From contig NC_135806.1 in NCBI RefSeq assembly GCF_964213995.1, forward strand, positions 40,920,001-40,984,000: a DNA stretch of 64,000 bases. The letters are read 5' to 3'. This DNA comes from Mustelus asterias (Eukaryota). The notes under the pieces were generated by a model. That model worked only from the letters and a program-made list of their open reading frames with translations. It made no database searches and was not told the origin of the DNA. The position numbers and the translations under genes were made by a program. The stretch's first letter is position 1; every line of letters starts with the position of its first letter. Shown here in pieces: positions 21,143 to 60,097 of this stretch.

Positions 21143-21352
21143 ACCATTGTCTGTATCTTTAAGACCTGGTTGGCTGTAGAGATTCACATTCTAATCAGTA
21201 TTCTGTAACTTGATTTTGTGTCTCTGTGTGCCCTGTTTGAGAGCAGATTTCCACTCCATCTGATGAAGGAGCAGCGCTCCGAAAGCTAATGGCATTTGCT
21301 ACCAAATAAACCTGTTGGACTTTAACCTGGTGTTGTTAAAACTCTTACTGTG
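21143..21352 (+). mobile_element. Penelope-like pLTR fragment (family A)
   Basis: Closely similar to 29233-29442 and ends at the same CTTACTGTG. Confidence 0.88.
21256..21292 (+). ncRNA. Minimal type I hammerhead ribozyme motif
   Basis: CCAT-CTGATGA-A-GGAGC(AGC)GCTCC-GAAA-GC-TA-ATGG: intact core, stems I and II, palindromic stem III. Confidence 0.8.
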
Positions 21353-25309: not shown

Positions 25310-25721
25310 GCCATGATGTGGAGATGCCAGTGTTGGACTGGGCGGACAAGATGAGAGGTCAGACACCAGGTTATAGTCCAACAGGTCGTGGTGACCCACT
25401 GTAACTACGTATTACATGCCTGGACACACCCGAGACTCCTCCCTTTCCACCTGATCGTGGTATAAAGGTGACGATTCCTCCTCTTTGCCTCAGTCTGGAC
25501 CAGGCTAGCTACAAGGGTGTGTTCCAGTTCTTTGTGATTAAAAGCCTGTTGTATTTCACACACTCGCTGGAGTCCTCGTGAATTGATGGTGCATCACAGG
25601 TTTATTTGTGAAGTGCACACTTCACCTGACTTCACATGACAAAGGAGCAGTGCTTCAAAAGCTTGTGATTTCAAATAAACCTGTTAGACTATAACCTGTT
25701 GTTGTGTGACCTCTCATCTTG
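25310..25721. mobile_element. Miniature inverted Penelope pLTR pair with 14-bp TSD
   Basis: Arms CAAGATGAGAGGTC..CCAGGTTATAGTCCAACAGGTTTATTTG / CAAATAAACCTGTTAGACTATAACCTG..GACCTCTCATCTTG; TSD TCTTGACGAAAGCA at 25296-25309 and 25717-25730. Confidence 0.8.
25387..25596 (+). mobile_element. Solo LTR (210 bp)
   Basis: 5-bp TSD CAGGT (25382-25386, 25597-25601); (T>C)GTGGTG...CATCA termini; TATAAAG and ATTAAA inside. Confidence 0.75.
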
Positions 25722-26679: not shown

Positions 26680-27167
26680 CGACCCTGCAAAATCCTCTTC
26701 ACTAAGAGCTGAGGACTTGTATCAAAATTGTGAGCACTGTCCCACAGATAAGTCGGACAGCATGCTTACATAATTATACGCACTAGGTCTTATAAAACCT
26801 CCCAGTGTCCCAGATACCACCATCAGCATGCTTGGCTAGATCCCACACCACCAGCATTAGAGGTGGCAGCACAGGGTTGGGGAGGAATTGGCCCAAGGAG
26901 TCCTCATCATTGACTCTGAACCCCTTGAAGTTTCATGACTTCAGGTCAAACAAAGGCAAGTAAACGTCCTGTTGATTGCCGCATATCTCCCTCCCTCAGC
27001 TGAAGAATCAGTATTTTTCAATGCTGAATATCACTTGAAAGAAATATTGAGGGTAGCCAGAGTACAACATCTGTGCAGGTTGGGGGACTTCAATGAGCAT
27101 AACCAAGGGTGACGAGGTAGGGTCACTACTGTCCAGATCCTGAAAAGCACATCTGCAAGACTGGACC
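26680..27167 (+). pseudogene. LINE AP-endonuclease fragment (L2/CR1 group)
   Basis: LLIAAYLPPSA and LGDFNEHN motifs (YRPP, GDFN). Confidence 0.6.
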
Positions 27168-28243
27168 TAGAACCATAGAACCATAGAAAATTACAGCTCA
27201 GAAACAGGCCTTTTGGCCCTTCTTGTCTGTGCCGAACCATTTTATGCCTAGTCCCACTGACCTGCACTTGGACCATATCCCTCCACACCCCTCTCATCCA
27301 TGAACCCATCCAAGTTTTTCTTAAATGTTAAAAGTGACCCCGCATTTACCACTTTATCCGGCAGCTCATTCCACACTCCCACCACTCTCTGCGTGAAGAA
27401 GCCCCCCCTAATATTCCCTTTAAACTTTTCTCCTTTCACCCTTAACCCATGCCCTCTGGTTTTTTTCTCCCCTAGCCTCAGCGGAAAAAGTCTGCTTGCA
27501 TTCACTCTATCTATACCCATCAAAATCTTATACACCTCTATCAAATCTCCCCTCAATCTTCTACGCTCCAGGGAATAAAGTCCCAACCTATTCAATCTCT
27601 CTCTGTAACTCAGCTTCTCAAGTCCCGGCAACATCCTTGTGAACCTTCTCTGCACTCTTTCAACCTTATTTACATCCTTCCTGTAACTAGGTGACCAAAA
27701 CTGTACACAATACTCCAGATTCGGCCTCACCAATGCCTTATATAACCTTACCATAACACTCCAACTTTTATACTCGATACTCCGATTTATAAAGGCCAAT
27801 GTACCAAAGGCACTCTTTACGACCCTATCCACCTGTGACGTCACTTTTAGGGAATTCTGTACCTGTATTCCCAGATCCCTCTGTTCAACTGCACTCTTCA
27901 GAGTCCTACCATTTACCCTGTACGTTCTAATCTGGTTTGTCCTTCCAATGTGCAATATCTCACACTTGTCTGCGTTAAATTCCATTTGCCATTTTTCAGC
28001 CCATTTTTCTAGTTGGTCCAAATCCCTCTGCAAGCTTTGAAAACCTTCCTCACTGTCCACTACACCTCCAATCTTTGTATCATCAGCAAACTTGCTGATC
28101 CAATTTACCGCATTATCATCCAGATCATTGATATAGATGACAAACAACAATGGACCCAAAACCGATCCCTGCAGCACACCACTAGTCACAGGCCTCCACT
28201 CAGAGAAGCAATCCTCCCACAACCACTCTCTGGCTTCTTCCAT
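27168..28243 (-). mobile_element. Young 5'-truncated CR1 with an open RT C-terminal frame (331 aa)
   Basis: ORF 27248-28243 with QGSVLGPLLF and KFADDTK; (TTCTATGG)n tail. Confidence 0.95.
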
Positions 28244-28337
28244 TGATGTGGAGATGCCGGCGTTGGACTGGGGTAAGCACAGTAAGAAGTCTCACAACAC
28301 CAGGTTAAAGTCCAACAGGTTTATTTGGTAGCAAATA

Positions 28338-28374
28338 CCATAAGCTTTCGGAGCACAGCTCCTTCGTCAGATGG
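28338..28374 (-). ncRNA. Minimal type I hammerhead ribozyme motif
   Basis: CCAT-CTGACGA-A-GGAGC(TGT)GCTCC-GAAA-GC-TT-ATGG on the minus strand. Confidence 0.82.
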
Positions 28375-29345
28375 AGTGGATATCTGTTCTCAAACAGTGC
28401 AAACAGACACAGAAATCAAATTACAGAATACTGATTAGAATGCAAATCTCTACAGCCAGCCAGGTCTTAAATGTACAGACAATGTGGGTGGAGGGAGCAT
28501 TCAACACAGGTTAAAGAGATGTGTATTGTCTCCAGACAGAACAGCTAGTGAAATTCTGCAAGTCCAGGAGGCAAGCTGTGGGGGTTACTGATAATGTGAC
28601 ATAAATCCAACATCCCGGTTTAGGCCGTCCTCATGTGTGCGGAACTTGGCTATCAGTTTCTGCTCAGCGACTCTGCGCTGTCGTGTGTCGTGAAGGCCGC
28701 CTTGGAGAACGCTTACCTGAAGATCCAAGGCTGAATGCCCGTGACTGCTGAAGTGCTCCCCCACAGGAAGAGAACAGTCTTGCCTGGTGATTGTCGAGCG
28801 GTGTTCATTCATCCGTTGTCGTAGCGTCTGCATGGTTTCCCCAATGTACCATGCCCCATCCCGAGGCATGGTACATTGGGGAAACCATGCAGACGCTACG
28901 ACAACGGATGAATGAACACCGCTCGACAATCACCAGGCAAGACTGTTCTCTTCCTGTGGGGGAGCACTTCAGCAGTCACGGGCATTCAGCCTTGGATCTT
29001 CAGGTAAGCGTTCTCCAAGGCGGCCTTCACGACACACGACAGCGCAGAGTCGCTGAGCAGAAACTGATAGCCAAGTTCCGCACACATGAGGACGGCCTAA
29101 ACCGGGATGTTGGATTTATGTCACATTATCAGTAACTCCCACAGATTTCCCCCTGATCTTGCAGAATCTCACTAGCTGTTCTGCCTGGAGACAATACACA
29201 TCTCTTTAACCTGTGTTTAATGTTCCCTCCACCCACATTATCTGTACCTTTAAGACCTGGCTGGCTGTAGAGACTTGCATTCTAATTAGTATTCTCTAAC
29301 TTGATTTCTGTGTCTCTGTGCACTGTTGGAGAACAGATTTTCACT

Positions 29346-29382
29346 CCATCTGACGAAGGGGCAGCGCTCCGAAAGCTTATGG
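29346..29382 (+). ncRNA. Minimal type I hammerhead ribozyme motif
   Basis: CCAT-CTGACGA-A-GGGGC(AGC)GCTCC-GAAA-GC-TT-ATGG. Confidence 0.82.
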
Positions 29383-29784
29383 TATTTGCTACCAAATAAA
29401 CCTGTTGGACTTTAACCTGGTGTTGTGAGACTTCTTACTGTGGATAAAAGTATGCCAGAGGCATGGGTTGGTGATAGAATTACAACTCTGTTGTGCCAAT
29501 TCTCTCAAATCCAGCACTCACAACCCTGAGGGTCCCTTATAATGATAGCACTCACCTCTGAATCAGAATGTTGTAGCTTCAAATCTCAATCCAAAGAATT
29601 GAGCACATAGTCCAGTTTGACATTTCAGTGCAGTATTTGGGGTGTGCTGCACTGTTGGATGTACAAGGAGAGAAATTGCATTCTATAGCACTTGTTTTTT
29701 AGGCAATAATTGGCATTCTCAAATGTGATAATCGAGTCCTAGATGTGCACACATTTTCGACAGGAAGTGTGCCAGCCCTTACAG

Positions 29785-31699: not shown

Positions 31700-33010
31700 T
31701 GAAAGAGGTACAGGAGGAGAAAGGCATTCAGCAAGATGCCATATCCCTTGAAAGTCATGAAGGAACATTTCCATGCTTGAGACGTAAGCAAAATATTGCG
31801 GATGCTGGAATCTGAAACAAAAACAGAAAATGCTGGAAAATCTCAGCAGGTCTGACAGCATCTGTGGATAGAGAGAATAGAGTTAATGTTTCGAGTCTGG
31901 ATGACCCTTCGTCAGAGCAGGGTGAAGAGTCACCCAGACTTGAAACATTGGTTCTGTTCTCTATCCACAGATGCTGTCAGGCCTGCTGAGATTTTCCAGC
32001 ATTTTCTGCTTTTGTGCTCGAGACATATTTGCTTCACTACTGAGATTGTGACTGAAATGTGCAAACGGCGGCTGCTGTTACTGCAACCTCAAAGCAGAGC
32101 AAGTTCTGCATTGCCTGTGGCTGTCAACCCAACCATCCATCTTAATTTTATGCATCTGACTTCTTCTAGGTTGCTATTGGAGACAAAAGTTTGCTGTACA
32201 AGGCTACATAAAGGAGGTCACTGAGGATTTCTAGAAACAGAGAGGCAGCTTCTCACAGTCCAACGAAGTGCAGGTTAGGTGGATTAACCATGGTAAATGT
32301 GCAGGGTTACAGGGATAAGGCAGGGGGTGGGGCTGGCCTCGGGGTAAGATGCAAACTCGATGGGCTGAATGGCCTCCTTCTGCAGTGTAGGGATTCTAAG
32401 TTTCTATGGTTCATCTCATTCCCTCTTGCCCAACACATGTAGGTAGATAGAGCACAAGGCGTCCCTCGGATTGTAGGCTTCCTCATGGTCCAGAGTGGCA
32501 CTGACTGTATGTACATTGCTTTCTGTGCACCTTTGCAAACAGAAGCTGATTCCACAATGCGCAGCTGGTATTAGACCAACAGGCAAGTGAATATCTTTAA
32601 CCCTGGCAATAGTCATGATTCCTTCATTCCATGACAGTCCTCCGTGCCAGCTGCGTTTGACCCACAGCAGCAGGTAAAAGGCTGGCTACTGGGTGACGAG
32701 GGTTATCCACCTTTCACATGGCATGTAGTTTGGAATTGACATATGCAAAGCGAGCATACAATATGAGTCACGCTGCTTGAAGAAACATGATGGAGGAGCC
32801 CTGCAGTCCTCAGCTTTGAAGATTTGTGGTAGTGTGCTGTCTGCCACAAACCATGGCCATTGTGCGGACCAGAAGCTGAGGAGCAAAAGCATAAAGAAGA
32901 GGAGAACCAGGAAGTGGAGGACCAAGAAGAGGAACAGAGGTTATACCGTAGTCAGCAGCTTTCTGCCAGGCTCGATGGGATCAAATAATTAATGAGCAAT
33001 ACCAATAACC
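31700..33010 (+). pseudogene. PIF/Harbinger transposase relic with nested insertions
   Basis: 32540-32780 yields FHNAQLVLD..PGNSHDSFI..GWLLGDEGYP..YNMSH; acidic C-terminal stretch at 32880-32940. Confidence 0.75.
31787..32014. mobile_element. Short palindromic Penelope-derived element (family B) with hammerhead-like core
   Basis: Inverted arms CAGAAAATGCTGGAAAATCTCAGCAGG..ACAGCATCTGTGGATAGAGA / TCTCTATCCACAGATGCTGT..CCTGCTGAGATTTTCCAGCATTTTCTG; minus strand CTGACGA-A-GGGTC(ATCCA)GACTC-GAAAC; relatives at 33882-33985 and 52540-52702. Confidence 0.75.
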
Positions 33011-37466: not shown

Positions 37467-40400
37467 TGATTTGGTTTGATTTGATTTGATTTATTATTGT
37501 CACATGTATTAGTAGATAGTGAAAAGTATTGTTTTTTGCGCACTATACGGACAAAGCATACCATACATAGAGAAGAAAAAGAGAGAGTGCAGAATCCAGT
37601 GTAACAGCTAGGGGGTAGAGAAAGATCAGCTTAACACGAGGTAGGTCCTTTCAAAAGTCTGATGGCAGCAGGGAAGAAGTTGTTCTTGAGTCAGTTGGTA
37701 CGCGTCCTCAGACTTTTGTATCTTTTTCCTGACAGAAGAAGGTGGAAGAGAGTATGTTTGGGGTGTGTGGGGTCCTTGGTTATGCTGGCTGTTTGTCCGA
37801 GGCAGTGGAAAGTATAGACAGAGTCAATGGATGGGAGGCTGGTTTGCGTGATGGACTGGGCTTTGTTCATGACCCTTTGTAGTTTATTGCGGTCTTGGGC
37901 AGAGCAGGAGCCATACCAAGCCGTTATACAACCAGAAAAAATGCTTTCTATGGTGCATCTGTAAAAGTTAGTGAGAGTCGTAGTGGACATGCCAAATTTC
38001 CTTAGCCTCCTGAGAAAGTAGAGGTGTTTGTGGGCTTCTTAACCATAGCATCGGCATGGAGGGACCAGGACAGGTTGTTGGCGATCTGGACACCTAGAAA
38101 CTTGAAGCTCTTGACCATTTCCACTTCATCTCCATTGATGTAGACAGGGCATGGCCTCCACTGCGCTTCCTGAAGTCAATGACTATCTTCTTCATTTTGT
38201 TGACATTGAGGGAGAGATTATTGTCACCGCACCAGTTCACCAGATTCTCTATCTCATTCCTGTACTCTGTCTCGTCATTGTTTGAGATCTGAAACACTAT
38301 AGTGATGTCATCAGCAAAATCGAATTGGAGGGGAATTTGGCCACACAGTCATAGGTGTATGAGTGTATAGTAAGGGGCAGAGGACACAGCCTTGAGGTGT
38401 TGAGGATGATTGCGAAGGAGGTATCACAATCTTTACTGATTGCGGTCTGTGGATTAGGAAGTCTAGGATCCAGTCGCAGAGGGAGGAGCAAAGCCCCAGG
38501 CCACAGAGTTTGGAGATGAGTTTTGCAGGAATAATGGTGTTGAAGGCTGAGCTGTAGTCAATAAATAGGAGTCTGACAGAGGTGTCTTTGTTATCTAGGT
38601 GTTCCAGGTTGAGTGCAGGGCCAGGGAGATGGCGTCTGCTGTGGACCTGTTGCGGCAATAGGTGAACTATAGTGGATCCAGGCAATCTGGGAGGCCAGAA
38701 TTGATCTGTGCCATGAGTAACCTTTCGAAGCACTTCATAATGATGGATGTCAGAACCACCGGACGATAGTCATTAAGGCACACTGTCTGGCTTTTCTTTG
38801 GTACCGGGAAGATGGTCGTCTTCTTGAAGCAGATAAGAACATAAGAACTAGGAGTAGGAGTAGGCCATCTGGCCCCTCGGGCCTGCTCCACCATTCAATA
38901 AAATCATGGCTGATCTTTTTGTGGACTCAGCTCCACTTACCTGCCCGCTCAGCATAACCCTTAATTCCTTTACTGTTCAAAAATTTATCTATCCTTGCCT
39001 TAAAAACATTCAATGAGGTAGCCTCAACTGCTTCACTGGGCAGGGAATTCCACAGATTCACAACCCTTTGTGTAAAGAAGTTCCTCCTCAACTCAGTCCT
39101 AAATCTGCTTCCCTTTATTTCTAGTTCTAGTTTCACCCACCAGTGGAAACAACTTCCCTGCATCTATCTTATCTATTCCCTTCATAATTTTATATGTTTC
39201 GAAAAGATCTCCCCTCATTCTTCTGAATTCCAATGAATATAGCCCCAGTCTACTCAGTCTCTCCTCATAAGCCAACCCCCTCAACTCCAGAATCAACCTA
39301 GTGAGTCTCCTCTGCACCCCCTCCAGTGCCAGTATATCCTTTCTCAAGTAAGGAGACCAAAACTGTACACAGTACTCCAGGTGTGGCCTCACCAGCACCT
39401 TATACAGCTGCAACATAACCTTGCTGTTTTTAAACTCCATCCCTCTAGCAATAAAGGACAAATTCCAATTTGCCTTCTTAATTATCTGCTGCATCTGCAA
39501 ACCAACTCCTTGAGATTCCTGCACAAGGACACCCAGATCCCTCTGCACAGCAGCATGCTGCAATTTTTTACCATTTAAATAATAGTCCATTTTGCTGTTA
39601 TTCCTACCAAAATGGATAACCTCATATTTACCAACATTGTACTCCATCTGCCAGACCCTTACCCACTCACTTAGACTATCTATATCCCTTTGCAGACTTT
39701 CAGCGTCCTCTGCACACTTTGCTCTGCCACCCATCTTAGTGTTATCTGTGAATTTTGACACACTACACTTGGTCCCCAACTCCAAATCATCTATGTAAAT
39801 CGCAAACAATTGCGGTCCCAACACTGATCCCTGAGGCTCACCACTGGTCACTGATCGCCAACCAGAAAAACACTCATTTACCCCCACTCTTTGTTTTCTG
39901 TTAGTTAACCAATCCTCTATCCATGCTAATACATTACCCATAACACCGTGCACTTTTATCTTATGCAGCAGTCTTTGGTGCGGCACCTTGTCAAATGCCT
40001 TCTGAAAATCCAGATACATCACATCCACAGGTTCCTCATTGTCTACTGCACATGTAATGTTCTCAAAGAATTCCACCAAATTAGTCAAACATGACCATCC
40101 CTTCATGAACCCATGCTGCATCTTACCAATGGGACAATTTATATCCAGATGTCTCGCTATTTCTTCCTTGATGATAGATTCAAGCATTTTCCCTACTACA
40201 GAAGTTAAGCTAACCGGCCTATAGTTACCTGCCTTTTGTCTACCTCCTTTTTTAAACAGTGGCGTCACATTTGCTGTTTTCCAATCTGAGAGTCCAGCAA
40301 ATTTTGGTAAATTACCACTAGTGGATTTTCTATTTCTCCCGCCATCTCTTTTAGTACCATGGGATGCATTCCATCAGGACCAGGAGACTTGTCTACCTTT

Positions 40401-41330
40401 AGCTCCATTAACTTGCCCAACACTACCTCTTTCGTGATAATGATAGTTTCTAGGTTCTCACCTGCCAATAGCCTTCCTGTCATCACTTTTTGGCATGTTA
40501 TTTGTGTCTTCCACTGTGAAGACTGACACAAAATACCTGTTCAATGCCTCAGCCATTTTCTCATTTCCAGTTATTACATCTTCCTTCTCATCCTCTAAAG
40601 GACCAATGTTTACTTTAGCCACTCTTTTTCGTTTTATATATTTGTAGAAACCTTTGCTATCTGTTTTTATATTCTGAGCTAGTTTACTCCCATAATTCAT
40701 CTTACTTTTTTATAGCTTTTTTCGTGGCTTTCGACTGACCTTTAAAGATTTCCCAATCCGCTAGGTTCCCACTAATCTTTGCCACTTTGTATGCCTTTTC
40801 TTTCAATTTGATACCCTCCTTTATTTCCTTAGATATCCATGGCTGATTATCTCTTTTTCTTCAGTCCTTCCTTATCACTGGTATATACTTTTGGTGAGCA
40901 CTGTGAAAGATCGCTTTGAAAGTCCTCCACTGTTCCTCAATTGTCCCACCATAAAGTTTTTGCTCCCAGTCTACCTTAGCCAACTCCTCCATTATCCCTT
41001 TGTAGTCTCCTTTGTTTAAGCACAAGACACTGGTATTAATAGGGACCTCAGATTGGTGTAAAGAGAGGTTAAAGATGTCTGCAAATACCCTTGCCAGCTG
41101 GTCCATGCAGGATCTGAGTGCTTATCCAGGTACCCCGTCTGGGCCAGTCGCTTTCTGTGGGATGACCTTCGAGAAGGCTGCTCTGACTTCTGCGATGGTG
41201 AACTTGGATACAGGTTCGGCCGAGGCTTCCGGGGTGGATGACGTCCTCTCACTGACCTCTTGCTCAAAACGGGCCTAGAATGTGTTGAGCTCATCAGGAA
41301 GGGGGTGCATTGGTGCCGGCGACTTTACAT
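37467..41330 (-). mobile_element. Rex1/Babar-clade LINE, split by a CR1 insertion
   Basis: [73 protein letters not shown]; (ATCAA)n tail at 37467-37492; segments 37467-38833 and 41038-41330. Confidence 0.88.
38834..41037 (-). mobile_element. 5'-truncated CR1 LINE (2.2 kb)
   Basis: ORF 39099-40268 covers the RT (NYRPVSLTS, YLDFQKAFDKVPH, PQGSVLGP); (TTCTTATG)n tail. Confidence 0.95.
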
Positions 41331-41732
41331 TGTCTGAGACTGCCTCATCATTGACTGAGGACTCCATTTTTATTTTTTAAAATCAGGGCACCAGTTTTAA
41401 AGATCTTTTGTAACTCCATTGCCGGCGGGGCTGGGCTCAATCAACTGGGATCGCTGCATAACTTTCTTTTTGTATTATGCACCTAAACACACTGTGGAGG
41501 ATGCCACCCTCGGGGCCGACAGCTTTCACCCGGCTTTCCAGACCGCTGAGCCACTTTGCCAAAAAAATGAGAAAATTCCACCCAATGCTTTTACTTCATT
41601 GGAGGAAATTTCTGAATGAAGTACTGGGTGTCAGACTAGTGTTCCATCAATTGGAGACAGTGGGCAGGCTGAGGGAGGTGGTAGTGAGATAAAGCTGTGT
41701 GTCATTAGAATACATGTGGAAACTGACACAAT

Positions 41733-44700
41733 GGGCTGAATTCTCCCATCTCGCCCACAGCGGGTTTAGTGTTGGGTGGGAGTGGAGAATCTAGTGGGAA
41801 GCAAGCCCACCAGTGTAAAATCATAGAACATAGAAAAAATACAGCACAAACAGGCCCTTCGGCCCACAAGTTGCGCCGGTCATGTCCCTACCTACCTAGG
41901 CTTATATATAGGCTTATCTATAACCCTCAATCCTATTAAGTCCCATGTACTCATCCAGAAGTCTCTTAAAAGACCCTATCGAGTTTGCCTCCACCACCAC
42001 TGACGGCAGCCAATTCCACTCACCCACCATCCTCTGAGTGAAAAACTTACCTCTGACATCTCCTCTGTACCTACTCCCCAGCATCTTAAACCTGTGTCCC
42101 CTCGTAGCAGCCATTTCAGCCCTGGGAAAAAGCCTCCGAGAATCCACCCAATCTATACCTCTCAACATCTTGCACACCTCTATCAGGTCACCTCTCATCC
42201 TTCGTCTCTCCAAGGAGAAAAGACCGAGCTCCCTCAGCCTATCCTCATAAGGCATGCCAACCAATCCAGGCAACATCCTTGTAAATCTTCTCTGCACCCT
42301 TTCAATCATTTCCACATCCCTCCTGTAATGAGGCGACCAGAATTGAGCACAGTACTCCAAGTGGGGTCTGACGAGGGTCTTATAAAGCTGCATCATTATC
42401 TCCCGACTCTTAAACTCAATCCCTCGATTGATGAAGGCCAGCACACCATATGCCTTCTTAACCACCTCCTCTACCTACGAGGCTGATTTAAGAGTCCTAT
42501 GGACCCGGACCCCAAGGTTCTTCTGATCCTCTACACTGCTAAGAGTCTTACCCTTGATATTATACTCCTTCATCCCATTTGACCTGCCAAAATGGTCCAC
42601 TACACATTTATCCGGGTTGAAGTCCATCTGCCACTTCTCCGCCCAGTCTTGCATCCTATCTATGTCACGCTGCAGCTTCTGACATCCCTCCAACCTATCC
42701 ACAACACCACCAACCTTCGTATCGTCGGCAAACTTACCAACACGTCCCTCCACTTCCTCATCCAGGTCATTTATGAAAATGATAAACAGCAAGGGTCCCA
42801 GAACAGATCCCTGGGGCACTCCACTGGTGACCGACCTCCATTCAGAAAAAGATCCTTCTACAACCACTCTCTACCTTCTGCAGGCAAGCCACTTCTGAAT
42901 CCACAAGGCAACAGCCCCTTGAATCCCATGCCCTCTCACTTTCTCGAGAAGTCTTGCATGGGGGACCTTATCGAACGCCTTGCTGAAGTCCATGTAAACC
43001 ACATCTACCGCTTTTCCTTCATCAATGTGTTTGCTCACATTTTCAAAGAACTCCACCAGGCTAGTAAGGCACGATTTGCCTTTGACAAAGCCGTGCTGAC
43101 TACTTTTGAGCATACTAAACTTCTCTAAATGTTCATAAATCCTGTCCCTCAGGATCTTCTCCATCAACTTACCAACCACTGAGGTTAGACTCACTGGTCG
43201 GTAATTTCCTGGGCTTTCCCTATTCCCTTTCTTGAATATAGGAACCACATCCGCAATCCTCCAATCCTCCAGAACCTCTCCTGTCTCCATCGACGACGCA
43301 AAGATCATCGCCAGAGACTCTGCAATCTCTTCCCTCGCCTCCCACAGTAACCTGGGGTACATCCCATCCGGTCCTGGCGACTTATCTATCTTGATGCTAT
43401 TCAAAATTTCCAACACATCCTCTTTCTTAATGTCCACATACTCAATCTTTGCAGTCTGCCTCAATCCTGTAGTACAACCACCCAGGTCTTTTTCCACCGT
43501 GAATACCGAGGTAAAATATTCATTAAGTACCTCTGCTATTTCTTCCGGTTCTGTACAGACTTTCTCACCTTCACCTTTTATAGGTCCTATTCCTTCACAT
43601 CTCATCCTTTTACTCTTCACATATTTATAGAACGCCTTAGGGTTCTCCTTAAGCTTACCTGCCAAGGCCTTCTCGTGACCCCTTCTGGCTCTCCTAATTT
43701 CTTTCTTAAGTCCCTTCCTGCAAGCCGTATACTCATCTAGATCCCTATCATCGCCTAGCTCTCTGAACCTTTTGTACGCTTTCCTTTTCTTTTTGACTAG
43801 ATTCAGCGCAGCTTTTGTGCACCACAGTTCCCGTAACCTACCAACACCTCCCTGTCTCATCGGAACGTTGTCATGCAGAACTCCAGACAAACATTCCTTG
43901 AAAATCTGCCACCTTACTTCAGTACTTTTCCTCGAGAATGCCTCCTTCCAATTTACGCCTCTAATCTCCTGCCTGATGGCTTCATATTTCCCCTTACTCC
44001 AGATACACACTTTCCTAGCTTGCCTGATCCTATCTCTTTCCAATGCTAGCGTAAAGGAGATAGAGTTATGATCACTATCCCCAAGATACTCCCCCACTGA
44101 GAGATTCGACACCTGTCCAGGCTCATTTGCCAGTACCAGATCGAGTACAGCCTCTCCTCTTGTAGGCTTATCCACATGCTCTGTCAGGAAACCCTCCTGA
44201 ATACACCTAATAAACTCCTCCCCATCTAAACCCCTTACCCTAGGGATATTCCAATCGATGTTTGGGAAATTAAAGTCTCCCATCACGACAACCCTGTTAT
44301 TCCTACATCTCTCCAGGATCTGTTTCCCTATCTGCTCCTCAACATCCCTGTTACTATTGGGCGGCCTGTAGAAAACACCCAGCAAAGTTATCGACCCCTT
44401 CCCGCTCCGAACTTCCACCCACAGAGACTCCGTAGACAATCTCTCCACGGCTTCCACCTTCTCTACAGCTGTGACACTATCCCTGATCAGCAGTGCCACT
44501 CCCCCCCCTCCCTCTTTCGCCTTCCTCTCTGTCCTTTCTGAAACATCTGAAACCCGGCACCTGAAGTATCCAGTCCTGTCCCTGTCCCCAAGTCTCCGTA
44601 ATGGACCACATCACACTTCCAAGCATCGATCCACACTCTAAGCTCATCCACTTTATTCACTACACTCCTTGCGTTAAAATAGACACATCTCAAACCTTTG

Positions 44701-45281
44701 GTCTGAGCTCTCCCCTTCTCCGTCACCCGTCTATTCTCCCTCTTACACTGTGTACAATCCTTCTCTATTTGCGGGCTAACCTCCTCGCTCTCAGTCACCT
44801 CATCACGATTCCCTCCCCGCAACCTTTCTAGTTTAAAGTCTCCCCAAATCATGTTGTAATTCTCCCAATGGCGGGTTAATGGCAGGTCTGTTTTCCCACT
44901 GGCCGGTGGAGTGAACGCCATTTATGTTCATTTGCATCTCATGAACGCTCATTAAACAGCTGCCCCCTGGCATCCCATCAGGCCCTTCAATCTTATGTAA
45001 CCCCAGCAAGAAATTATATCAGCCTAAAACCTAATTGCTAAAGAGTGGCATGTACAAGGCAGCCCTTAGTTTGCAAGATACTTTGGGGTGAGTGCAACAT
45101 TGCCATTGTGCTACTCTATTCCTGATACACTGTACAACACTCCATTGGGGCAAACCGGATCCTGCCCTCCATCTGTATGCCAAGCTGGTGTTCATGGACA
45201 GCACTATGTTTGTGTGTGTTGCCATTATAGTAGCTCTTCCCACATTGCTGCCATTTCATAAGGGTGGTAAAATTCTGGCCC
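41733..45281. mobile_element. Harbinger-like TIR element interrupted by the 3-kb CR1
   Basis: Left terminus GGGCTGAATTCTCCC, candidate right terminus TAAAATTCTGGCCC; pairing of the two ends is uncertain. Confidence 0.35.
41822..44846 (-). mobile_element. Young CR1 LINE with nearly intact ORF2 (APE endonuclease + RT)
   Basis: ORFs 42871-44499, 42475-42867 and 41914-42465 are collinear; FYRPPNS, GDFNFP, LDLVL, SDHN, KFADDTK; TSD AAATCAT on both flanks. Confidence 0.95.
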
Positions 45282-45628
45282 TACATTCCAGCCTTGGGAA
45301 CATCCTGGATCCAGATCGAGGAGGTATGTCACATCACCATCCCCCCAGCTGCATTGTGATAATGTCTGTTGGAACGTAACTCCGGCAGTTCCTGTCTGAC
45401 CAGCAAAGTGAACAGAACTCCAGGCAAGAGCCTGCGCTGTCGACCATCCAGCAGAAAGAACTGGGATCCTCATCAGACTTGCCATATGCTGAAACCTCAG
45501 AACTTGTGCCTCCTGACTGACTCATTCTATGTGCCTTCTCCTATCATGCCAGCCTCCCTCTGGAAAGACAAAGCCTTTGAGAATCAACCAACCAACCTAT
45601 GGAACGAACATTCCAGGGAACACATGGG

Positions 45629-46643
45629 GGGGGCGATTTTCCCCAAAACATTAAATGCCAAATTCACGTAAAAACTGGAGGAAATGGTTTTTTCAGCGGT
45701 ATTTTCAAAATGAATCTCCCACACTCTGAGCACTGCAGAGTGCCCCAGAAAGATTCACGTTGAAAATACAGGGGTGGAGCCTATTCCCGCTGGAGAGGCC
45801 GGCCGCATAGCGCTGAGCGGGCCGATGCGCATGCGCCGATCTATCAGGTGGAGATTGGTGCAGGCAGTAGCCCCATACTGCCGGCCTCCCCATCACTGGC
45901 CAGTGATTAAGCTGCTAGCTCAATCACTAGCCAACCCTGCGTCCTTGCACAGCTGGCCATGCGACCCCTCCACCCCCCGATCGCTGGCCTCCCGGACCAA
46001 TGCGGGCCAGCCCTGATGTTCCCCGCCCCTGGGCAGTCCCAATCCCCCCCCCCCCCCCCCCCCCCCGACCCCAGCAGTCCCGACCCCCCACAGCAGCCCT
46101 CCACCCCCCCCCCACCTGGATGGCCACCCCCGATCACCCCCTTCCCTCCCTCTGTCACTGATCCCATCTGCAGAGTGGCAGTGGAACCCCCCCACTCCCA
46201 CCGATGCCCCCCCCATAAGCCCTGCCTCCAATAGGCCCTGCCCCCCTCTGGTCCTGCCCCTTGGCACTGCCTGATGCATGGTGGGCAGTGCCAAGGTGCC
46301 CCTTGGGCAGTGCCAAGGGGACAGGCTGGCAGTGCCAGCCTGGCACTGCCCAGGGGGCATACCCCTCACCCCTGACCTCCTAGGGGGGACATTCCTTCAC
46401 TCCAGCAGGGTCGGGTCGCCAGTTCCCTGTTGGGGAACAGTGGGGAGCTGTTGCAAATCCCCCTGGAGTGAACCACTCCCGGCGGGGGGGGGGGAGATGC
46501 TAGCGGGCCCAAGGACTGCAGTCCTGGGCCCGCTAATGATATTTAAATTGAAATTTAAATAAGGAAATTAGCTCCGCATGGGAAATCGGCACGGAGCTGA
46601 TGACTCCGCTGGAGCAGCGCAGTGGGCTGGGAAAATCACGCCC
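45629..46643. mobile_element. Harbinger-like non-autonomous element, GC-rich
   Basis: TIR GGGGGCGATTTTCCC / GGGAAAATCACGCCC; poly-C; TGGCACTGCC/GGCAGTGCCA repeats; palindrome GCTAAT..ATTTAAAT..ATTTAAAT..ATTAGC. Confidence 0.6.
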
Positions 46644-46659
46644 GTGATTCTGGACTCTG

Positions 46660-46880
46660 GACACATGTCACCCGGTACTTGTGTTTTTGTTGTGGATGTG
46701 ACCTGAACTCTCTTCCTCCTTTTTCCTTATCCCCTATTTATTGTCTGGGTATAAAAAGGGGTGGATGTTGCAAAACACTTCTTGGGGTATGTGTCTGTGT
46801 AGAAATAAAGCAACCCTTTTATTTTCATCTTAGCTCGAGCTTGCTGTGCAAGTTATTAACAGAGGATTGGAACATTTTCA
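46660..46880 (+). mobile_element. LTR-like fragment (3' half)
   Basis: TATAAAA at ~46750, AATAAA at ~46804, ends ...TTTTCA. Confidence 0.35.
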
Positions 46881-48262
46881 AATTGAAGGGTTGGGAAAAA
46901 TATGCCACCAGTTATAAAGGAAACCTTTATGTTTACAGACAGGTAGAGAGTGGGGAAATCAGGGCTGTTTAAATTAACCCTCCTCCAGTCCATGACAGTT
47001 CATTTCTTCTCCACAAAGACAGCATTGTCATAATGTCGATGTCCTCCTCATGCTCAGCATGCTTAGTGGTGGTTAGGTGAGCCCTGGAAAGGGCATCTGC
47101 TAAGTACGGTTCCTTACCACGTTTATAGATCACACTGAAGTTGTCACTGGAGCCTGAGCGTCATTCTCTGCAGACACGGTAAGCAATATGGAGGAGCTTT
47201 TAGAGAATGCCATTGAGCAGCTGGTGATCAGGTTCAACGGTGACAGGGCAGCCGTAAATGAAATTGTGAAATTTCTCTCAGGCAAAGACAAGGAGGAGGA
47301 GTTATTTCTCGATCGAGGCATAGCGTACTTCAGTGTCAGTGAGGGCTCCTGGTGCAATAGTCACTGGTCTGCCTTTCTGGGTGGACACTGCTCCAAGCTC
47401 ATGCTGAGACACATCTGCTGATAACGCTACTGGTTTGAACTTCAAAGTATTGTAACACTGGAGGGGCTGAAAGCAGGTCCTTGAGTCTGTTGAATTCACT
47501 GTGTGGTGCTCCTGCCAGCACCATTCCACATCCTAGTGGAGAAGTTGGCATAGGGGTGCAGTCACTTTGCTGTAGCAATTTGGATAGGTAATTTGCCATG
47601 CTGAGGAAGCGCTGCAGCATGGTCTGTCATCAGGAGTTGGTATTTTCCATATAGCCTTTGTCTTGTCTGGGTCTGGCTTCACACCGTTGGCAGTCAGCAG
47701 GTGGCCCACATAGAAGACTTCACTGACACTGAATTTGTATTTGGCAGGGTTGAACTTCAACTGTACGGTTCTGATTCTGTTAAGGACCAAATGCAGATGT
47801 TCATCATGCTCCTCCACTGTGTGCTCCCAAATTAGGATGTCATTAATGATGATTTTGCATGGTGGCCCTGCAATGAGCTGTTCCATGGACTTCTGAAAGA
47901 TCTCACTACCAGTGAAATACCATAAGCCAGGGCATGCACAGGAATCTGTATCTGCCCACTGGAGACATGAACGTCATGCACTTCAAGGATTCTTCATCAC
48001 GCAGGATTTGCTAAAATCCGCATTTTGCTTCCAAGATGCTGAAGACTTTGGCATTAGGCATGTCTGCAATGATCTGTACGACTGTCTTCATTAGACGTTG
48101 AGATCATAAGTGCTTTGTTAAGGTGAACTGGGTCAATACAGATTCTGACTGTGTCATCTTTCTTTACCGCAGTTACTTTCCTGGAGATCCATTCTGTGGC
48201 TTCGCCTATGACATCCAGTCTTGTCATTCGGCCTAGTTTGTCTATTATCTGCTGTTTTATGG

Positions 48263-49095
48263 TACAAAGAACAAAGAACAAAACAGCATAAGAACAGGCC
48301 CTTCGGCCCTCCAAGCCCGTGCCGCTCCCTGGTCCAAACTAGATCATTCTTTTGTATCCCTCCATTCCCACTCCGTTCATGTGGCTATCTAGATAAGTCT
48401 TAAACGTTCCCAGTGTGTCCGCCTTCACCACCTTGCCTGGCAGCGCATTCCAGGCCCCCACCACCCTCTGTGTAAAATATGTCCTTCTGATATCTGTGTT
48501 AAACCTCCCCCCCCTCACCTTGAACCTATGACCCCTCGTAAACGTCACCACCGACCTGGGGAAAAGCTTCCCACCGTTCACCCTATCTATGCCTTTCATA
48601 ATTTTATACACCTCTATTAGGTCACCCCTCATCCTCCGTCTTTCCAGTGAGAACAACCCCAGTTTACTCAATCTCTCCTCATAACTAAGCCCCTCCATAC
48701 CAGGCAACATCCTGGTAAACCTCCTCTGTACTCTCTCCAAAGCCTCCACGTCCTTCTGGTAGTGTGGCGACCAGAACTGGACGCAGTATTCCAAATGCGG
48801 CCGAACCAACGTTCTATACATCTGCAACATCAGACCCCAACTTTTATACTCTATGCCCCGTCCTATAAAGGCAAGCATGCCATATGCCTTCTTCACCACC
48901 TTCTCCACCTGTGACGTCACCTTCAAGGATCTGTGGACTTGCACACCCAGGTCCCTCTGCGTATCTACACCCTTTATGGTTCTGCCATTTATCGTATAGC
49001 TCCTCCCTACATTAGTTCTACCAAAATGCATCACTTCGCATTTATCAGGATTGAACTCCATCTGCCATTTCTTTGCCCCAATTTCCAGCCTATCT
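48263..49095 (-). mobile_element. Young 5'-truncated CR1 nested in the Gypsy
   Basis: Open frame KWQMEFNPDKCEVMHFG...; (TTCTTTG)n tail. Confidence 0.93.
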
Positions 49096-49204
49096 GTAAG
49101 GGGCATTGTTTTTGGAGCTAGCCATTTGGAGATACTGAACCATCCAACCTCATGTGATAGATAACAGGCAGGGGGGGACTGCACATGAAGTACTAAATTC
49201 AGGG

Positions 49205-49502
49205 GAGGTGGTGGGGTGGTGGTATTGTCATTGGACTAGTAATCTAGAGACCCAGGTTAAAGCTCTGGGGACCGGGGTTTGAATCTCACCACTGCAGAGG
49301 GTGAAATTTGAATTCAATAAAAAAATTCTGGAATGATTGCCCTGTAATGGGCAATGATGAAAAAATGATGACCATGAAACAATTGTCGGAAAAACCCATC
49401 TTTTTCACTTATGTCCTTTAGGGAAGGAAATCTGCCATCATTACCTGGTCTGGCCTACATGTGACTCCAGTGCCACATCAATGTGTTTGACTCTCAATTG
49501 CC
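49205..49502 (+). mobile_element. tRNA-derived SINE, followed by an L2-group fragment (49520-49630)
   Basis: Head GGTGGTATTGTCATTGGACTAGTAATCTAGAGACCCAGG..GGTTTGAATCTCACC; body AAAAACCCATC..TGTCCTTTAGGGAAGGAAATCTGCC. Confidence 0.75.
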
Positions 49503-49769
49503 TAGGAATACTGCGGCATATAACTCATCTCCTGACTCTTCAAAGGTGAACAGGCTTTGGGGAGTCAGGAGGTGAGTTTCACGCCACAGTATTCCTAGCC
49601 TCTGATCTGCCCTTGTAGCCACTGTGTTTATGCTTATGTGCAATATTGTCAGGGAGACCAGCAGTGATTTAACATCCTGGTCAACTACATGGAATTGAAA
49701 CTTGCCCTGCATGCAGCCTAAGGTGAGTGTGTCTTCTGTGGATATGGTTTGTTCATCATATGCAACAGA

Positions 49770-50630
49770 TGATAACATAAAATTACAAAGGGATATTGAT
49801 AGAGTAAATGAATGAACACAACTGTGGCAGATGGATTTCAATCTAAACATTTTGGACTGAAAAAGAATAGATCAGGGTACTTTCTGGAGGGTATGAAGTT
49901 AAATACAGTAGATGTTCAAAGAGACTTTGGGGTTCAGGTGCCACGATCATTAAAATACCAAGTACAGATGCAGAAAAAAATCAAGAAGGCGAATGGAATG
50001 CTGGCCGTTATATCTAGAGGACTGGAATATAAGGATGCAGAAGTTATGCTGCGGCTACACAAAACCCTGGTTAGACCCCACTTGGAGTACTGTGAGGAGA
50101 TCTGGGCACCACACCTTAGGAAGGATATATTGGCCTTGGAGGGAATACAATGCAGTTTACAAGAATGATATCTGGACTTTGGGGTTGAATTATGAGGAGA
50201 GATTATACAAATTAGATTGGTTTTCTCGAGAATTTATAAAGTTAAGGGGTGATCTGATCGAAGTCTTCAAGATACTGACAGGAAAAGACAGGGTCGATAA
50301 AGATAAACTATTTCCACTGATTGGAGATTCTAGAACTAGGGGGGAATAGCATAAAAATATTGGCCAGACCGTTCAAGAGAGATGTTAGGAAGCACTTTTA
50401 TGCCCAAAGTGGGGTAGAGATTTGGAACTCTTTTCCACAAACCACAATTGATCCTAAATCAGTTGCTATCTTTAAATCTGAGATAGATACTTTTTTGTTA
50501 AGCAAAGATATTAAAGGATATGGGCCAAAGGCAAGTATATGGAGTTAGGCCACAGATCAGCCATGATCTCATTAAATGGCGGAATGGGCTTGATGGGCTG
50601 AATGGCCCACTCCTGTCCTTATGTTCCTAT
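49770..50630 (+). mobile_element. CR1 3' portion nested in the Gypsy
   Basis: KKANGMLAVISRGLEYK..LVRPHLEYC; tail ...TATGTTCCTATG. Confidence 0.9.
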
Positions 50631-51674
50631 GAAACAAGGTTGACTTTGTTGGTTGAATCAAGTGCAGTACAGGGCCTGAATTATTTCAGCAGTGGCTTCG
50701 ACAAAACATTACATTTTGCCCCAGTACCAAGTCTAACTTTGTTGCGAGCAATGCTGAGCGTTGTGAATCTTTCACCCTCTTCAGTGATGAGGTCAATACT
50801 TTCATGGTCGATTGCTTCCAGGGGCATAGGGTTTTGATTCATCTCAGCTCATTCACTTTGTTTATGTGCTGAGCTTTGCAGAGGTAGGGATAGTAATTTG
50901 CCATGCTGAGGAAGCACTAAGCTTTGGCTGCAGCATGTCTTGTGATAGTAGCTGCACGATACGGCTTTGATCTCCAACACTTGGCAAAATAACTCCCTCT
51001 ACCATCGTTATTGCAGTGCTTGTTAAGTGCAAAGCACGCGCTTCTTCTTCTGTGGGTACTGGCAGTTGCAGTTTGAGCAGGGTATGTTTTGTACAGAAAA
51101 GACTTCAGCTGTTCGTGTTAATTCTTTACTGCGCCTCTCAGATTGCACATTCAACGTGCAAATATTAATGGCAGATTCCAAGGTTAATTTTTTTTCTGGG
51201 AGAAGCTGCTTGCGCACACTGTCACTGTGTATTCCACACACTATACGGTCTCTAACAAGTTTGTCAGTGAGAGCACCAGATTCACACTTTCTTGCCTGAA
51301 TTTTCAGTATTGGAATGTCCCACTGTATTAATTCATTGGGTTTCTGACTGGCTGTGCTGAAAGCGTGTCTATCTATGACTACATTTTTTACAGGTATGCC
51401 ATTTTGTTGAAATTTCTTTACTTATTCCCCAGGGTCCTCTTTGTCTTCCCCCTCCTGGAATGTGAAGGATTCCAATGTCTCCACAACCTCCGGAACCACC
51501 AGGTTCAGCAACGTGTAGGCTCGGACTTTCTTTGATTTGCCGGACAGGCCAGCATAGCAGTATGCACTCCATTCCTTCTCAAACATTTTCCAATTGTTGG
51601 CAATGTTTTCATCAATAGTAAGTGGGTTGAAGTGCTTGAGCTCTTGTGCAATTGCAGCTAGCTCCTGACACAAT

Positions 51675-51877
51675 GTAAAGGTAAAGTCACCATGGTCCCA
51701 GATGACCATAGGCTGTGACTGGTGGTGATTTAACCTGAGGATCACCACACCTCAAGGTGAGGGACAAGGTTGAGAAAGTGGGCCTTCATGAATAACCTCA
51801 GCCGGTATGGGAATTGAACCCGTGCTGTTGGCGTCGCTCTGCATCATTAGCCGTCCAGCCTACTGAGCTAAACTGGC
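51675..51877 (-). mobile_element. tRNA-derived SINE inserted at the Gypsy primer-binding site
   Basis: A-box TAGCTCAGTAGG, B-box GGTTCAATTCC, tail GACTTTACCTTTAC; flanks CACAA / CACCA. Confidence 0.75.
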
Positions 51878-52202
51878 ACCAGGTGTAATTATGTGGTTGT
51901 GTGGGAATGAGAACACACGTGATAATGTCAACAGTTTATTAAGAAGTCCTTAACTGCCGTTACATACTATGCCCGTAGCTATGTGGGAGTCACTTCTGCC
52001 CCCCTCTCCTACATTGCATATCAATTCCTGTGCACAGGTCATTTGGCAAGTTGTGAATGAATGCACATTCTACCTTCCCTTTTAGAGGCCCAGACTAGTT
52101 TTAAGCAGTGCTAGCTACTCACCATATTGGCACCCTTCAGATGGGCCCAGTCAATCAACAGTTAGCTGTTTCCCTGTTGAAATCATTCAAATCAGCAAGC
52201 AA

Positions 52203-52415
52203 TAGAGGGTGGTGGGTGAATGGAATCGGCTGCCGTCAGTGGTGGTGGAGGCAAACTCGATAGGGTCTTTTAAGAGACTTCTGGATGAGTACATGGAACT
52301 TAATAGGATTGAGGGTTATAGGTAAGCCTATATATAAGCCTAGGTAGGTAGGGACATGACCGGCGCAACTTGTGGGCCGAAGGGCCTGTTTGTGCTGTAT
52401 TTTTTCTATGTTCTA
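52203..52415 (+). mobile_element. CR1 3' fragment, same subfamily as 41822-44846
   Basis: Near-identical to the reverse complement of 41822-42035. Confidence 0.92.
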
Positions 52416-52776
52416 ATACAAAGTTGGCCTACTGCCTGAATTGCACCGAATTGGTACACTGATCCTTGCACTTGTTTTCAGGGGATATCTAATTTAGTAA
52501 CCAAAGTGTCACGTGATAAAGGAATGGGGTTTAAACATAAGAAAAACAAAAAGTGCTGGAAAAACTCAGCAAGTCTGGCAACCCCTGAGGAGAGAGAAGC
52601 AGAGTTAACATTTCGAGTCCATATGGTCTTCTTTCGCTGAGCTTTTCCAACACTTTTTGTTTTGATTTCAGATCTCCAGCATCCACAATATTATGTTTTA
52701 TTTGAGGTTTCTAAGGTACCTGGATTGTACCAGACTAAACACAGTGAAGTTTAATGGTCAATTTTCGTTCACAAGT

Positions 52777-58700: not shown

Positions 58701-58803
58701 ACAGGTCAGAAATGGGCAGCAAGGCGACAGGCTGGCTACCTGCTTTATTTGGTGTGACCCCTGCCTTCAAATGTGCTGGTGCAGGAAGAGTAAAATTCCC
58801 CCC
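52777..58803. mobile_element. Putative Harbinger-like TIR element enclosing the minisatellite
   Basis: GGGCTGAATTTTA at left, TAAAATTCCCCCC at right; subterminal palindrome GCCCTTAAGTGG..CCATTCAAGGGC. Confidence 0.45.
53213..58526. repeat. 27-bp minisatellite, ~195 units
   Basis: Consensus CACTGGGTAATGCTCAGTGGGGGTGG(G/A); variants GGAGATGG, GGAGGTGG and single-G deletions; degenerate copies at the left edge. Confidence 0.98.
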
Positions 58804-59024
58804 CTTAGACCCCAATCTTGACAGGAATGTGGATAATGAGCTGGGGGATGCCTAGCTTTCATTGGAATATCCACCCCTTGACTGCACCCCCCTCCTCACC
58901 ACTTGACCTGCCTCCACTATTCCCAGCAGTGGCCTGATTGGAGTTAGGTTTGGGATTTTAAAATGTTAACATCTCATTTGACATCAACACATCCAACTTT
59001 GGGGGTTAATCCATAAATAAAAAT

Positions 59025-59325
59025 CCATAAACTCCTACAGTGCAGAAGGGGGCCATTCAGCCCATTGAGTCTGCATTGACCCTTTGAAAGAGCATTCTAC
59101 ATGGGCCCCACTCCCCCGCCCCATCCCCATAGCTGCATACATTTAGCATGGCCAATCCACCTAACCCGCACATCTTTGGAGTGTGGGAGGTAACAGGAGC
59201 ACCCAGAGGAAACTCACACAGACACGGGGAGAATGTGTGAACTCCACACAGACAGTGACCCAAGGCCAGAATTGAACCTGAGTCCCTGTTGCTGTGAGTC
59301 AGCAGTGCTAACCACTGTGCTTCCC
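59025..59325 (-). mobile_element. HE1-type SINE
   Basis: Head, V-domain and tail on the minus strand. Confidence 0.88.
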
Positions 59326-60097
59326 AAAAAAATCACACCTTCTTTAGAGAGTGATTAGAATGTGGAACTTGCTAGCGCAAAATACTTGGATGCCAGTGTT
59401 CTCCAATTTTTAAGACTGTGCCAGTTTTATCTGAATCTCACTTGGCAGAGTTTGGGGAATTTGGTCTGATGCACTCTATGGTTACCGTCAAATAAACATT
59501 GTTTTAGTTTTAGGAGAGGATGCCATGGAGGACATGGCATTCTGGATCACACCACACAACGTGGAGCTAACCAAATGCTCCAGTTTCAGCAAAATATTTC
59601 ACACTTCTGCCAGAAGTTGAAAAATAAATACAAGTGTAGATTGTGTTATTTCTCAGTGGAAAAGCTTCCTGTCAGCTGGTCTAACTTCAAAGTCCGAGAC
59701 ACTGGTTCTGTGCCACATCACTCAGGGCTGTGTGACCAAACTCAACATTCAACAATGTAAACCCTTCAGAGTTCTTCCACAATTGCAGTATAATAACACA
59801 GTGTGATGTCAATCAGGTCAGCTTCCTGGCAGTTATTTGGCTGACAGGACTTCCTGCTGACGCAGCACTTTGATACCATGAGAAAATCCCAGGGTAACTT
59901 GACAAATTGTAGTCTGCAGCTTCCAGGGGCAGGTGGATCTGTTGTGTGGGATCTTCATCCGTAACCACAAGCTATCCTTTTCACTGTGCTCTCCTTCCCA
60001 ACCCACCACCTGCCTCCTTCCCTAGCTACATAGAAAATGTCTGCATGAATATCACAAGTATTTGTGTAAAATAATAATAACTGGAAACTTCGTATAA

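Follow-up and report, generated by a model that had tools for sequence, protein, structure and literature searches.

The window analysed here is a stretch of 64 kb, and its longest inverted repeat is a palindrome whose arms (28278–28855 and 28865–29442) measure 578 nt each, are 96% complementary and lie 9 nt apart. This bears out the preliminary description, which had reported two arms of about 580 bp around a 9-nt spacer; the spacer sequence is also as given there. The palindrome sits 41 Mb into a 148-Mb contig of the 3.68-Gb assembly. Base-by-base comparison of the arms yielded 24 substitutions and no indels. The arms are unequal at their outer ends, the left one carrying an extra 34-nt tail (28244–28277, minus strand) and the right one none; the tail was delimited by arm comparison and by the presence of exactly one tailed arm in 45 of 50 palindromes of the same family.

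Inward from the tail, the left arm consists of a pLTR or untranslated part of haplotype L (28278–28584, minus strand), which shows 0–5 differences over 229 nt from the family copies L029, L033, L047 and L055, and of the last 89 codons and stop codon of a GIY-YIG endonuclease (28585–28855, minus strand), identified from arm comparison, reading frames and Pfam. A 3-nt insertion of non-element sequence (28856–28858) joins the two 5′-truncated ends; the remaining 6 nt of the 9-nt centre continue the right arm, and the tailed arm extends 0 nt into it. The right arm begins with a C-terminal endonuclease fragment and stop (28859–29135, plus strand), of which 28865–29136 equals the left arm exactly and is the putative crossover interval, with no site diagnostic for L or R. 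It ends with a tailless pLTR or untranslated part of haplotype R (29136–29442, plus strand), 5–10 differences from copies L025, L081, L121, L003 and L004 and 24 from the left arm. The preliminary description had assigned an endonuclease C-terminus, a pLTR and a hammerhead to each arm. All three are present, but the GIY half of the domain is missing, and the tail, the clustering of the arm differences and the lack of a target duplication had been overlooked.

Each arm codes for the last 89–92 residues of the endonuclease, from the YIG half onward; the GIY half and its cysteines are absent, and the YIG half and the histidines are kept. The Pfam GIY-YIG model matches the arms with E-values of 0.004–0.009 and 17–18 bits, under the curated cut-off of 22.6. 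No protein product is predicted, and the element copy is predicted to be dead. A longer family copy, L021, contains the reverse transcriptase (RT) catalytic motif, thumb, linker and endonuclease in a single frame, with a CCHH motif and two cysteines between GIY and YIG recognised by eye, and with a zinc-finger-like C-X4-C-X2-C motif in the linker that separates RT from endonuclease (EN), a region that lies outside the window arms. Available text of PMC8557442 defines EN+ Penelope-like elements by a CCHH endonuclease and describes a CX2-5CxxC linker motif in Neptune and Nematis; by these definitions, the linker and endonuclease motifs identify the family as a putative Neptune/Nematis-type Penelope-like retrotransposon. 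The family or the locus thus offers an RT-EN open reading frame and CCHH motif (both in L021), a pLTR hammerhead, and an inverted truncated copy with a one-sided tail. A target-site duplication is lacking at the locus and present in 88 of 96 other pairs; such duplications are variable within the class according to the part of PMC3846280 consulted, and we read the missing one as a secondary loss. The earlier assignment to Penelope-like elements with inverted pLTRs and dimer-type minimal hammerheads therefore holds. A non-LTR retrozyme was considered and rejected, since the arms are head-to-head, a coding fragment is present and the locus contains no tandem repeat; retrozymes of this kind are described, in the portion of the preprint available (bioRxiv 10.64898/2026.07.22.740005), as non-coding head-to-tail tandem units with a hammerhead in each.

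The left arm contains a minimal type I hammerhead motif at 28338–28374 (minus strand), located by a fixed-register pattern, pair counts and folding, with a predicted cut between 28342 and 28341. Its counterpart in the right arm (29346–29382, plus strand; inspection, fold and pattern) has a predicted cut between 29378 and 29379. Both show the conserved core, one additional base after position 9, helices I and II of 4 and 5 bp, respectively, and a 2-nt linker, and features such as this linker are typical of dimer-type minimal motifs, as far as the accessible sections of PMC4209133 describe them. In 172 pattern-selected family motifs, among which overlapping loci were counted more than once, standard pairs account for 94–100% per position, and helix I shows a T-A to C-G change. 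A search with Rfam models gave no hammerhead at the gathering threshold and none among the 10 matches down to an E-value of 10. The claim that the hammerheads are intact thus survives for the core and for helices I and II, seen by inspection in both arms, but covariance models miss them. (Rfam miRNA matches at the palindrome centre scored below gathering and were set aside as generic hairpin matches.) The proposal that stem III is the palindrome AAGCTT needs correction: the A at its start and the T at its end occupy core positions 14 and 17 and do not belong to helix III. Position 17 is U in 112 of the 172 family motifs, including both window arms, and A in 52; because of the latter, the conserved palindrome is the inner AGCT.

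Where truncated copies end bears indirectly on whether the family ribozyme is used. The palindrome counts are 406 per 40,051 copies for centres just upstream of the predicted cut and 84 per 30,675 for centres at a position in the endonuclease; 23 of 80 arms (40 of the 406 loci) end within 2 nt of the cut, vs. 7 of 100 at the control position, and both arms end there in 7 of 40 loci, vs. 0 of 50, a comparison that rests on a single control position and is to be read knowing that short insertions are in any case more frequent towards the 3′ end. This gathering of truncated ends at the predicted cut suggests that the family ribozyme probably cuts somewhere in the life cycle. For monomers of such minimal ribozymes, the text of PMC4209133 that was available reports no cleavage, and for dimers little.

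The flanks of the palindrome do not match each other. The left end landed in a fragment of a CR1-type LINE that runs from the RT to the 3′ end (27167–28246, minus strand; Pfam RVT_1, E = 3.5e-13, on the frame 27251–28291); the name CR1 is our presumption from its 3′ repeat. Within it, a TG at 28231–28232 (plus strand) forms the left half of the family target signal TG-N16-CA, derived from counts in empty sites, and 28235–28246 (plus strand) is the left copy of a 12-bp target-site duplication known from siblings in CR1, its last 3 nt being common to the tail; the right copy is absent. The right flank (29443–29458, plus strand) is a different target site, in single-copy DNA; its CA half-site lies 13 nt off the junction, compared with 14 nt in the CR1 siblings.

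Exact matches to the left junction, at the same CR1 nucleotide, occur 390 times genome-wide (control, 0), a raw count that is relative to no CR1 copy number, and this shared landing nucleotide itself fits the TG-N16-CA rule. The insertions at this one nucleotide of the CR1 RT frame (28230–28253 in the window plus 389 other places) vary in length and have their own duplications. Other repeat positions also recur as targets among the reconstructed empty sites. Among 30 CR1-site siblings, 21 have an inverted arm, and all 21 retain both the duplication and the continuation of CR1 (22 of 22 in a second parse). At the window palindrome, a target-site duplication was looked for in the window and is absent, and the CR1 continuation, taken from siblings L043 and L069, has no close match beside the locus. 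Searches for where the older LINE to the left of CR1 continues, and for a duplicated CR1, returned nothing usable. The reciprocal tailed junction gave 0 matches in the assembly with the tighter pattern, and the missing halves of both presumed insertions were not found elsewhere in it. Two looser matches to a reciprocal product were set aside: L190 carries its own duplication, and L191 has a different upstream flank context.

The two arms are also not the same haplotype. They are 100% identical over the 272 nt nearest the centre and over the outermost 77 nt, and all 24 mismatches are confined to offsets 273–501, i.e., 229 nt of untranslated DNA that begins to differ two bases past the endonuclease stop codon (P about 2e-10 if differences were uniform). 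Twenty to 21 of the 24 are alleles common to other family copies, and this clustering, with the shared alleles, rules out uniform decay of originally identical arms after insertion. Neither do these features suit a fold-back read artefact, which is ruled out by the tail, the haplotype differences and a junction of the family type. Among 70 symmetric pairs, the window palindrome is the only one with arms differing at five or more shared sites. Duplications are missing in five of the 69 others, without haplotype discordance. No site in the inner 272 nt tells L from R, and of 69 unrelated arms, 7 match the window arms exactly over this segment as well, so that two independent templates could have left the same pattern. 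Among the family arms compared, haplotype blocks make up a mosaic in the untranslated part, which varies far more than the endonuclease end; this suggests frequent template switching or conversion among pLTR variants.

Palindromes of this kind are common, as a genome-wide count of the sort proposed in the preliminary description revealed: those centred in the same 30-nt interval alone number 84 by exact pattern (control, 0). The first 50 of them, window locus included, comprise 45 with one tailed and one tailless arm, one with two tails and four that are broken. A second sample, unselected for this centre, consisted of the first 60 tail matches of one contig end (C1), of which 59 could be parsed; these gave 39 tailed/tailless head-to-head pairs, one tailed/tailed pair and 19 tails for which the chaining rule gave no partner, at least three of them with one lying beyond a longer gap. 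Exact tail matches total 78,528 in the genome, and matches to the 3′ region 205,381. Scaling the former by 39/59, a fraction sampled at one contig end, suggests some 40,000–60,000 hairpin-forming insertions, a number relevant to dsRNA load, assembly and rearrangement. Duplications of at least 8 bp flank 64 of the 69 symmetric pairs and 24 of the 27 asymmetric ones. Arms differ by 1.1–1.9% within a locus, vs. 3.5–16% between loci, so the arms usually share a template. With regard to the cruciform-prone site suggested in the preliminary description, sibling palindromes persist to 5–6% arm divergence with their target duplications intact. The shape itself, an adjacent inverted truncated copy with a one-sided tail of 30–40 bp and a duplication, is a published one in what was available of PMC8557442 and PMC3846280. 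The window locus is thus real and ordinary in kind, and mildly unusual as a mosaic.

Two cases stood apart in these surveys. L056 (G000:C9:65442815-65445856) has two tails and host flanks that are mirror images too, unlike all other pairs, and is either a DNA-level inverted duplication or an assembly artefact. The palindromes at the L198 region and at G000:C1:34521260, separated by 16.5 kb, share one junction and probably stem from a segmental duplication.

How such pairs arise can be approached through their symmetry, their targets and their templates. The 5′ ends of the two arms fall within 25 nt of each other in 23 of the 39 unselected pairs, where 6.1 are expected and 16 was the maximum in 20,000 shuffles. 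TG-N16-CA is present in 90 of 124 reconstructed empty sites, a set that excludes the CR1 hot-spot loci, as against 7–27 sites for other spacings; this symmetry points to a two-fold symmetric cutter. Arms that differ at five or more family-shared sites occur in none of 69 symmetric pairs (window locus excluded), vs. 5 of 27 asymmetric pairs (26 distinct, one having been counted twice), a threshold that was chosen afterwards: P is 0.069 at three or more shared sites, 0.002 at four and 0.001 at five, and 0.008 by a rank test. The five discordant pairs (L007, L022, L023, L129, L151) have intact duplications and arms asymmetric by 121–701 nt; ascertainment was mixed, three of the five lying at loci that had been chosen because they resemble the right arm. 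From these pairs, some insertions appear to use two templates.

For the window locus, the best explanation, which we hold to be probable, is a dead, 5′-truncated head-to-head insertion that was primed from both cut strands and later recombined with a second copy. In a first step, a dimeric RT-endonuclease would have cut a TG-N16-CA site in CR1 with a stagger of about 12 nt. Both 3′ ends would then have primed on the same 5′-broken RNA, one at the end of the tail and the other about 35 nt further in, and both cDNAs would have stopped at about the same base and been joined by the 3-nt insert. The broken 5′ end of the RNA would set the length of both arms, with usually one RNA per insertion. In a second step, homologous recombination inside the identical 272-nt endonuclease segment would have joined on the outer half of an insertion of haplotype R, with loss of the target duplication on the right and of the remainder of CR1. 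Recombination is proposed because the arm differences are shared alleles, the duplication and the CR1 continuation are lost, the right end has a half-site of its own and no reciprocal junction was found. The two arm haplotypes and the missing landing scar are likely to stem from two separate insertions that later recombined, and on the simplest and most likely account, CR1 first received a symmetric L/L insertion, which then recombined with an R-type insertion so that the DNA between them was deleted.

A single event with two RNAs and two cut sites, the left end primed at CR1 on an L-type RNA and the right at a distant site on an R-type RNA with loss of the intervening DNA, could produce the same arms, and we judge it unlikely. 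Discordant pairs with an intact duplication do exist (the five named above), the inner identity of the window arms is uninformative, and the right end resembles a genuine cut site. All five of those pairs are asymmetric and duplicated, however, whereas the window palindrome is symmetric to 6 nt and has no duplication; the single event requires three coincidences, and recombination one event.

The palindrome might also have been formed first by self-priming or fold-back, a route proposed for Adineta elements in the accessible text of PMC3846280, and then have undergone the same later recombination; we consider this quite improbable. In its favour, the 5′ ends nearly coincide and the arms are nearly identical in the symmetric class, and junctions show microhomologies of 1–5 nt (sibling junctions have either these or insertions of 1–22 nt); symmetric pairs taken alone are compatible with it too. 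The tailless arm is as often the longer, however: in 10 of 16 asymmetric pairs, with the tailed arm longer in 6, and on a finer scale in 22 of 45 pairs, with the tailed arm longer in 16 and the two equal in 7. The arms are therefore not nested, which argues against fold-back from a tailed first strand, as this predicts the opposite. A plus-strand copy of a tailless cDNA would also gain no tail without an extra step, discordant arms lie inside one duplication, and identical junctions recur across subfamilies and hence were not inherited from a palindromic parent; propagation of such a parent was rejected on the same ground. Together, the non-nested arms, the TG-N16-CA target and discordance found mainly in asymmetric pairs favour priming from two strands over fold-back.

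A misjoin in the assembly, fusing two real loci through their identical endonuclease segments, would yield exactly such a mosaic, and we give it little credence. Among the assembled contigs of four sequencing runs, none crosses the whole palindrome; two samples of one study cross the right junction, with 24 and 21 letters inside the element against a threshold of 31. Against a misjoin stand the position of the locus deep within its contig and the failure of the missing halves to turn up elsewhere in the assembly. A 1.2-kb repeat is, moreover, short relative to long reads.

Generalising to the family, we propose that a dimer cuts a two-fold symmetric site and copies from both strands; that equal palindromes would come from one 5′-broken (sometimes ribozyme-cut) RNA, and unequal ones possibly from two RNAs or pLTR copies within one duplication; and that insertions then recombine, deleting host DNA, the window locus being such a scar. 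We regard this combined model as evenly poised between right and wrong. The family pattern makes the origin of inverted insertions directly testable: two strands should be primed, from two start sites, and a minority of insertions should draw on two templates.

In L1 twin priming, both target strands prime reverse transcription and the ends are joined by microhomology, as proposed here, yielding non-overlapping inverted halves. The family described here differs in that both primers start near the 3′ end, so that the arms overlap as a palindrome.

The closest published parallels are the complex EN+ Penelope insertions of Craig et al. (2021, PMC8557442) and Pen2a_Av of Arkhipova et al. (2013, PMC3846280). 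As far as their available text goes, these share with our locus an inverted 5′-truncated copy abutting the 5′ end, a 30–40 bp tail at one end, a pLTR hammerhead and a palindromic junction, and with our family the target duplication. The window arms differ from them in being short and equal, without a full open reading frame or a direct pLTR pair, and in the window copy the duplication is gone and the arms belong to different haplotypes. Counts of symmetry or of arm origin do not appear in the accessible portions of either paper. The Poseidon element of Anolis (PAc; Frangieh et al., 2024, PMC11167929) has, in the sections available, two RT start sites bracketing the tail, like the family here; in vitro, both strands are cut and extended, the enzyme is a predicted dimer, and the ribozyme is inactive without protein. 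Arms, tail and target symmetry of our family fit this behaviour. The Poseidon clade lacks the linker zinc finger that our family has, and PAc prefers AT-rich or ATT targets, in contrast to the spaced TG-N16-CA. Inverted insertions are left unexplained in those sections, and the accessible text of the papers cited calls it an open question how inverted insertions tailed on one side arise in Penelope elements. A literature search, which most subscription papers lay beyond, found none proposing two-strand priming as the source of Penelope palindromes. As far as the searched literature goes, the connection of arm symmetry with template origin, the CR1 nucleotide hit by 390 insertions and the recombinant described here are new.

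Metazoan Penelope-like minimal hammerheads (Cervera and de la Peña, 2014, PMC4209133) share with ours, in the parts of that paper available, a short helix I, the extra base after position 9, a G10.1-C11.1 pair and a palindromic 15–16; Schistosoma is described there as having motif pairs on opposite strands 100–700 bp apart. Ours differ in a helix II of 5 bp and in U17 in each arm (about 30% of the family motifs have A there), and are known from sequence. Inverted Penelope copies in Drosophila (PMC3681739, as available in part) are alike in that inverted repeats may serve as a dsRNA source against the family; there the siRNAs were demonstrated by small-RNA data, whereas the window locus is known from genomic sequence.

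Any read-through RNA of the palindrome is predicted to fold into a hairpin of −1115 kcal/mol with 567 pairs, in which the sense ribozyme pairs with its antisense copy (−95 kcal/mol in the computed duplex, vs. −10 for its own fold), as the preliminary description anticipated. The self-cleavage switch suggested there is not borne out by the model. In either direction the antisense arm would be transcribed first, and the single sense copy has no dimer partner, so that the motif is predicted to be off and not switchable; a ribozyme switch at this locus is unlikely. In any read-through RNA, the ribozyme would be locked in duplex, and the RNA would be at most a generic dsRNA substrate. Production of siRNAs from the locus is plausible by analogy with Drosophila, and the locus is not singled out as a small-RNA source, hairpins being the majority form of the family. 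A selected role as small-RNA source or folding-dependent switch is extremely improbable: a perfect duplex of 272 nt, with a further 77 nt, would make a Dicer substrate if transcribed, the family ribozyme likely cuts, and in transgenic Drosophila siRNAs corresponded to Penelope regions in inverted orientation (PMC3681739, in the part available), but the locus is young, mosaic and one among tens of thousands of similar hairpins, the antisense arm always precedes the lone sense ribozyme, such minimal ribozymes cleaved little as dimers and not at all as monomers (PMC4209133, likewise in part), and no gene was found around it in the frames scanned. No RNA run was listed among the sequencing runs containing the locus, which is silent on expression. 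The scan covered 42 of the 83 window frames of at least 110 aa, a set that short exons would escape, and detected no host gene exon; these frames gave retroelement domains only, plus one ALKBH8_N match, which we take to be LINE-derived. The window locus itself is of little importance, and the interest lies in the pattern of the family.

Other elements in the window include further members of the family. A tailless 3′ fragment at 21145–21352 (plus strand) is 89% identical, has A at hammerhead position 17 and has no partner by BLAST. An older tailed/tailless pair at 25314–25714, about 78% identical to the arms and flanked by a 13-bp duplication, is interrupted by approximately 240 bp, possibly a solo LTR, that start with TG and end with CA. 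Another hammerhead-like core, whose helix II is longer, at about 31870–31940 (minus strand), probably derives from another Penelope-like family. Finally, 53215–58526 is a strongly G-skewed tandem array of a 27-bp unit, with 197 copies and 94% matches.
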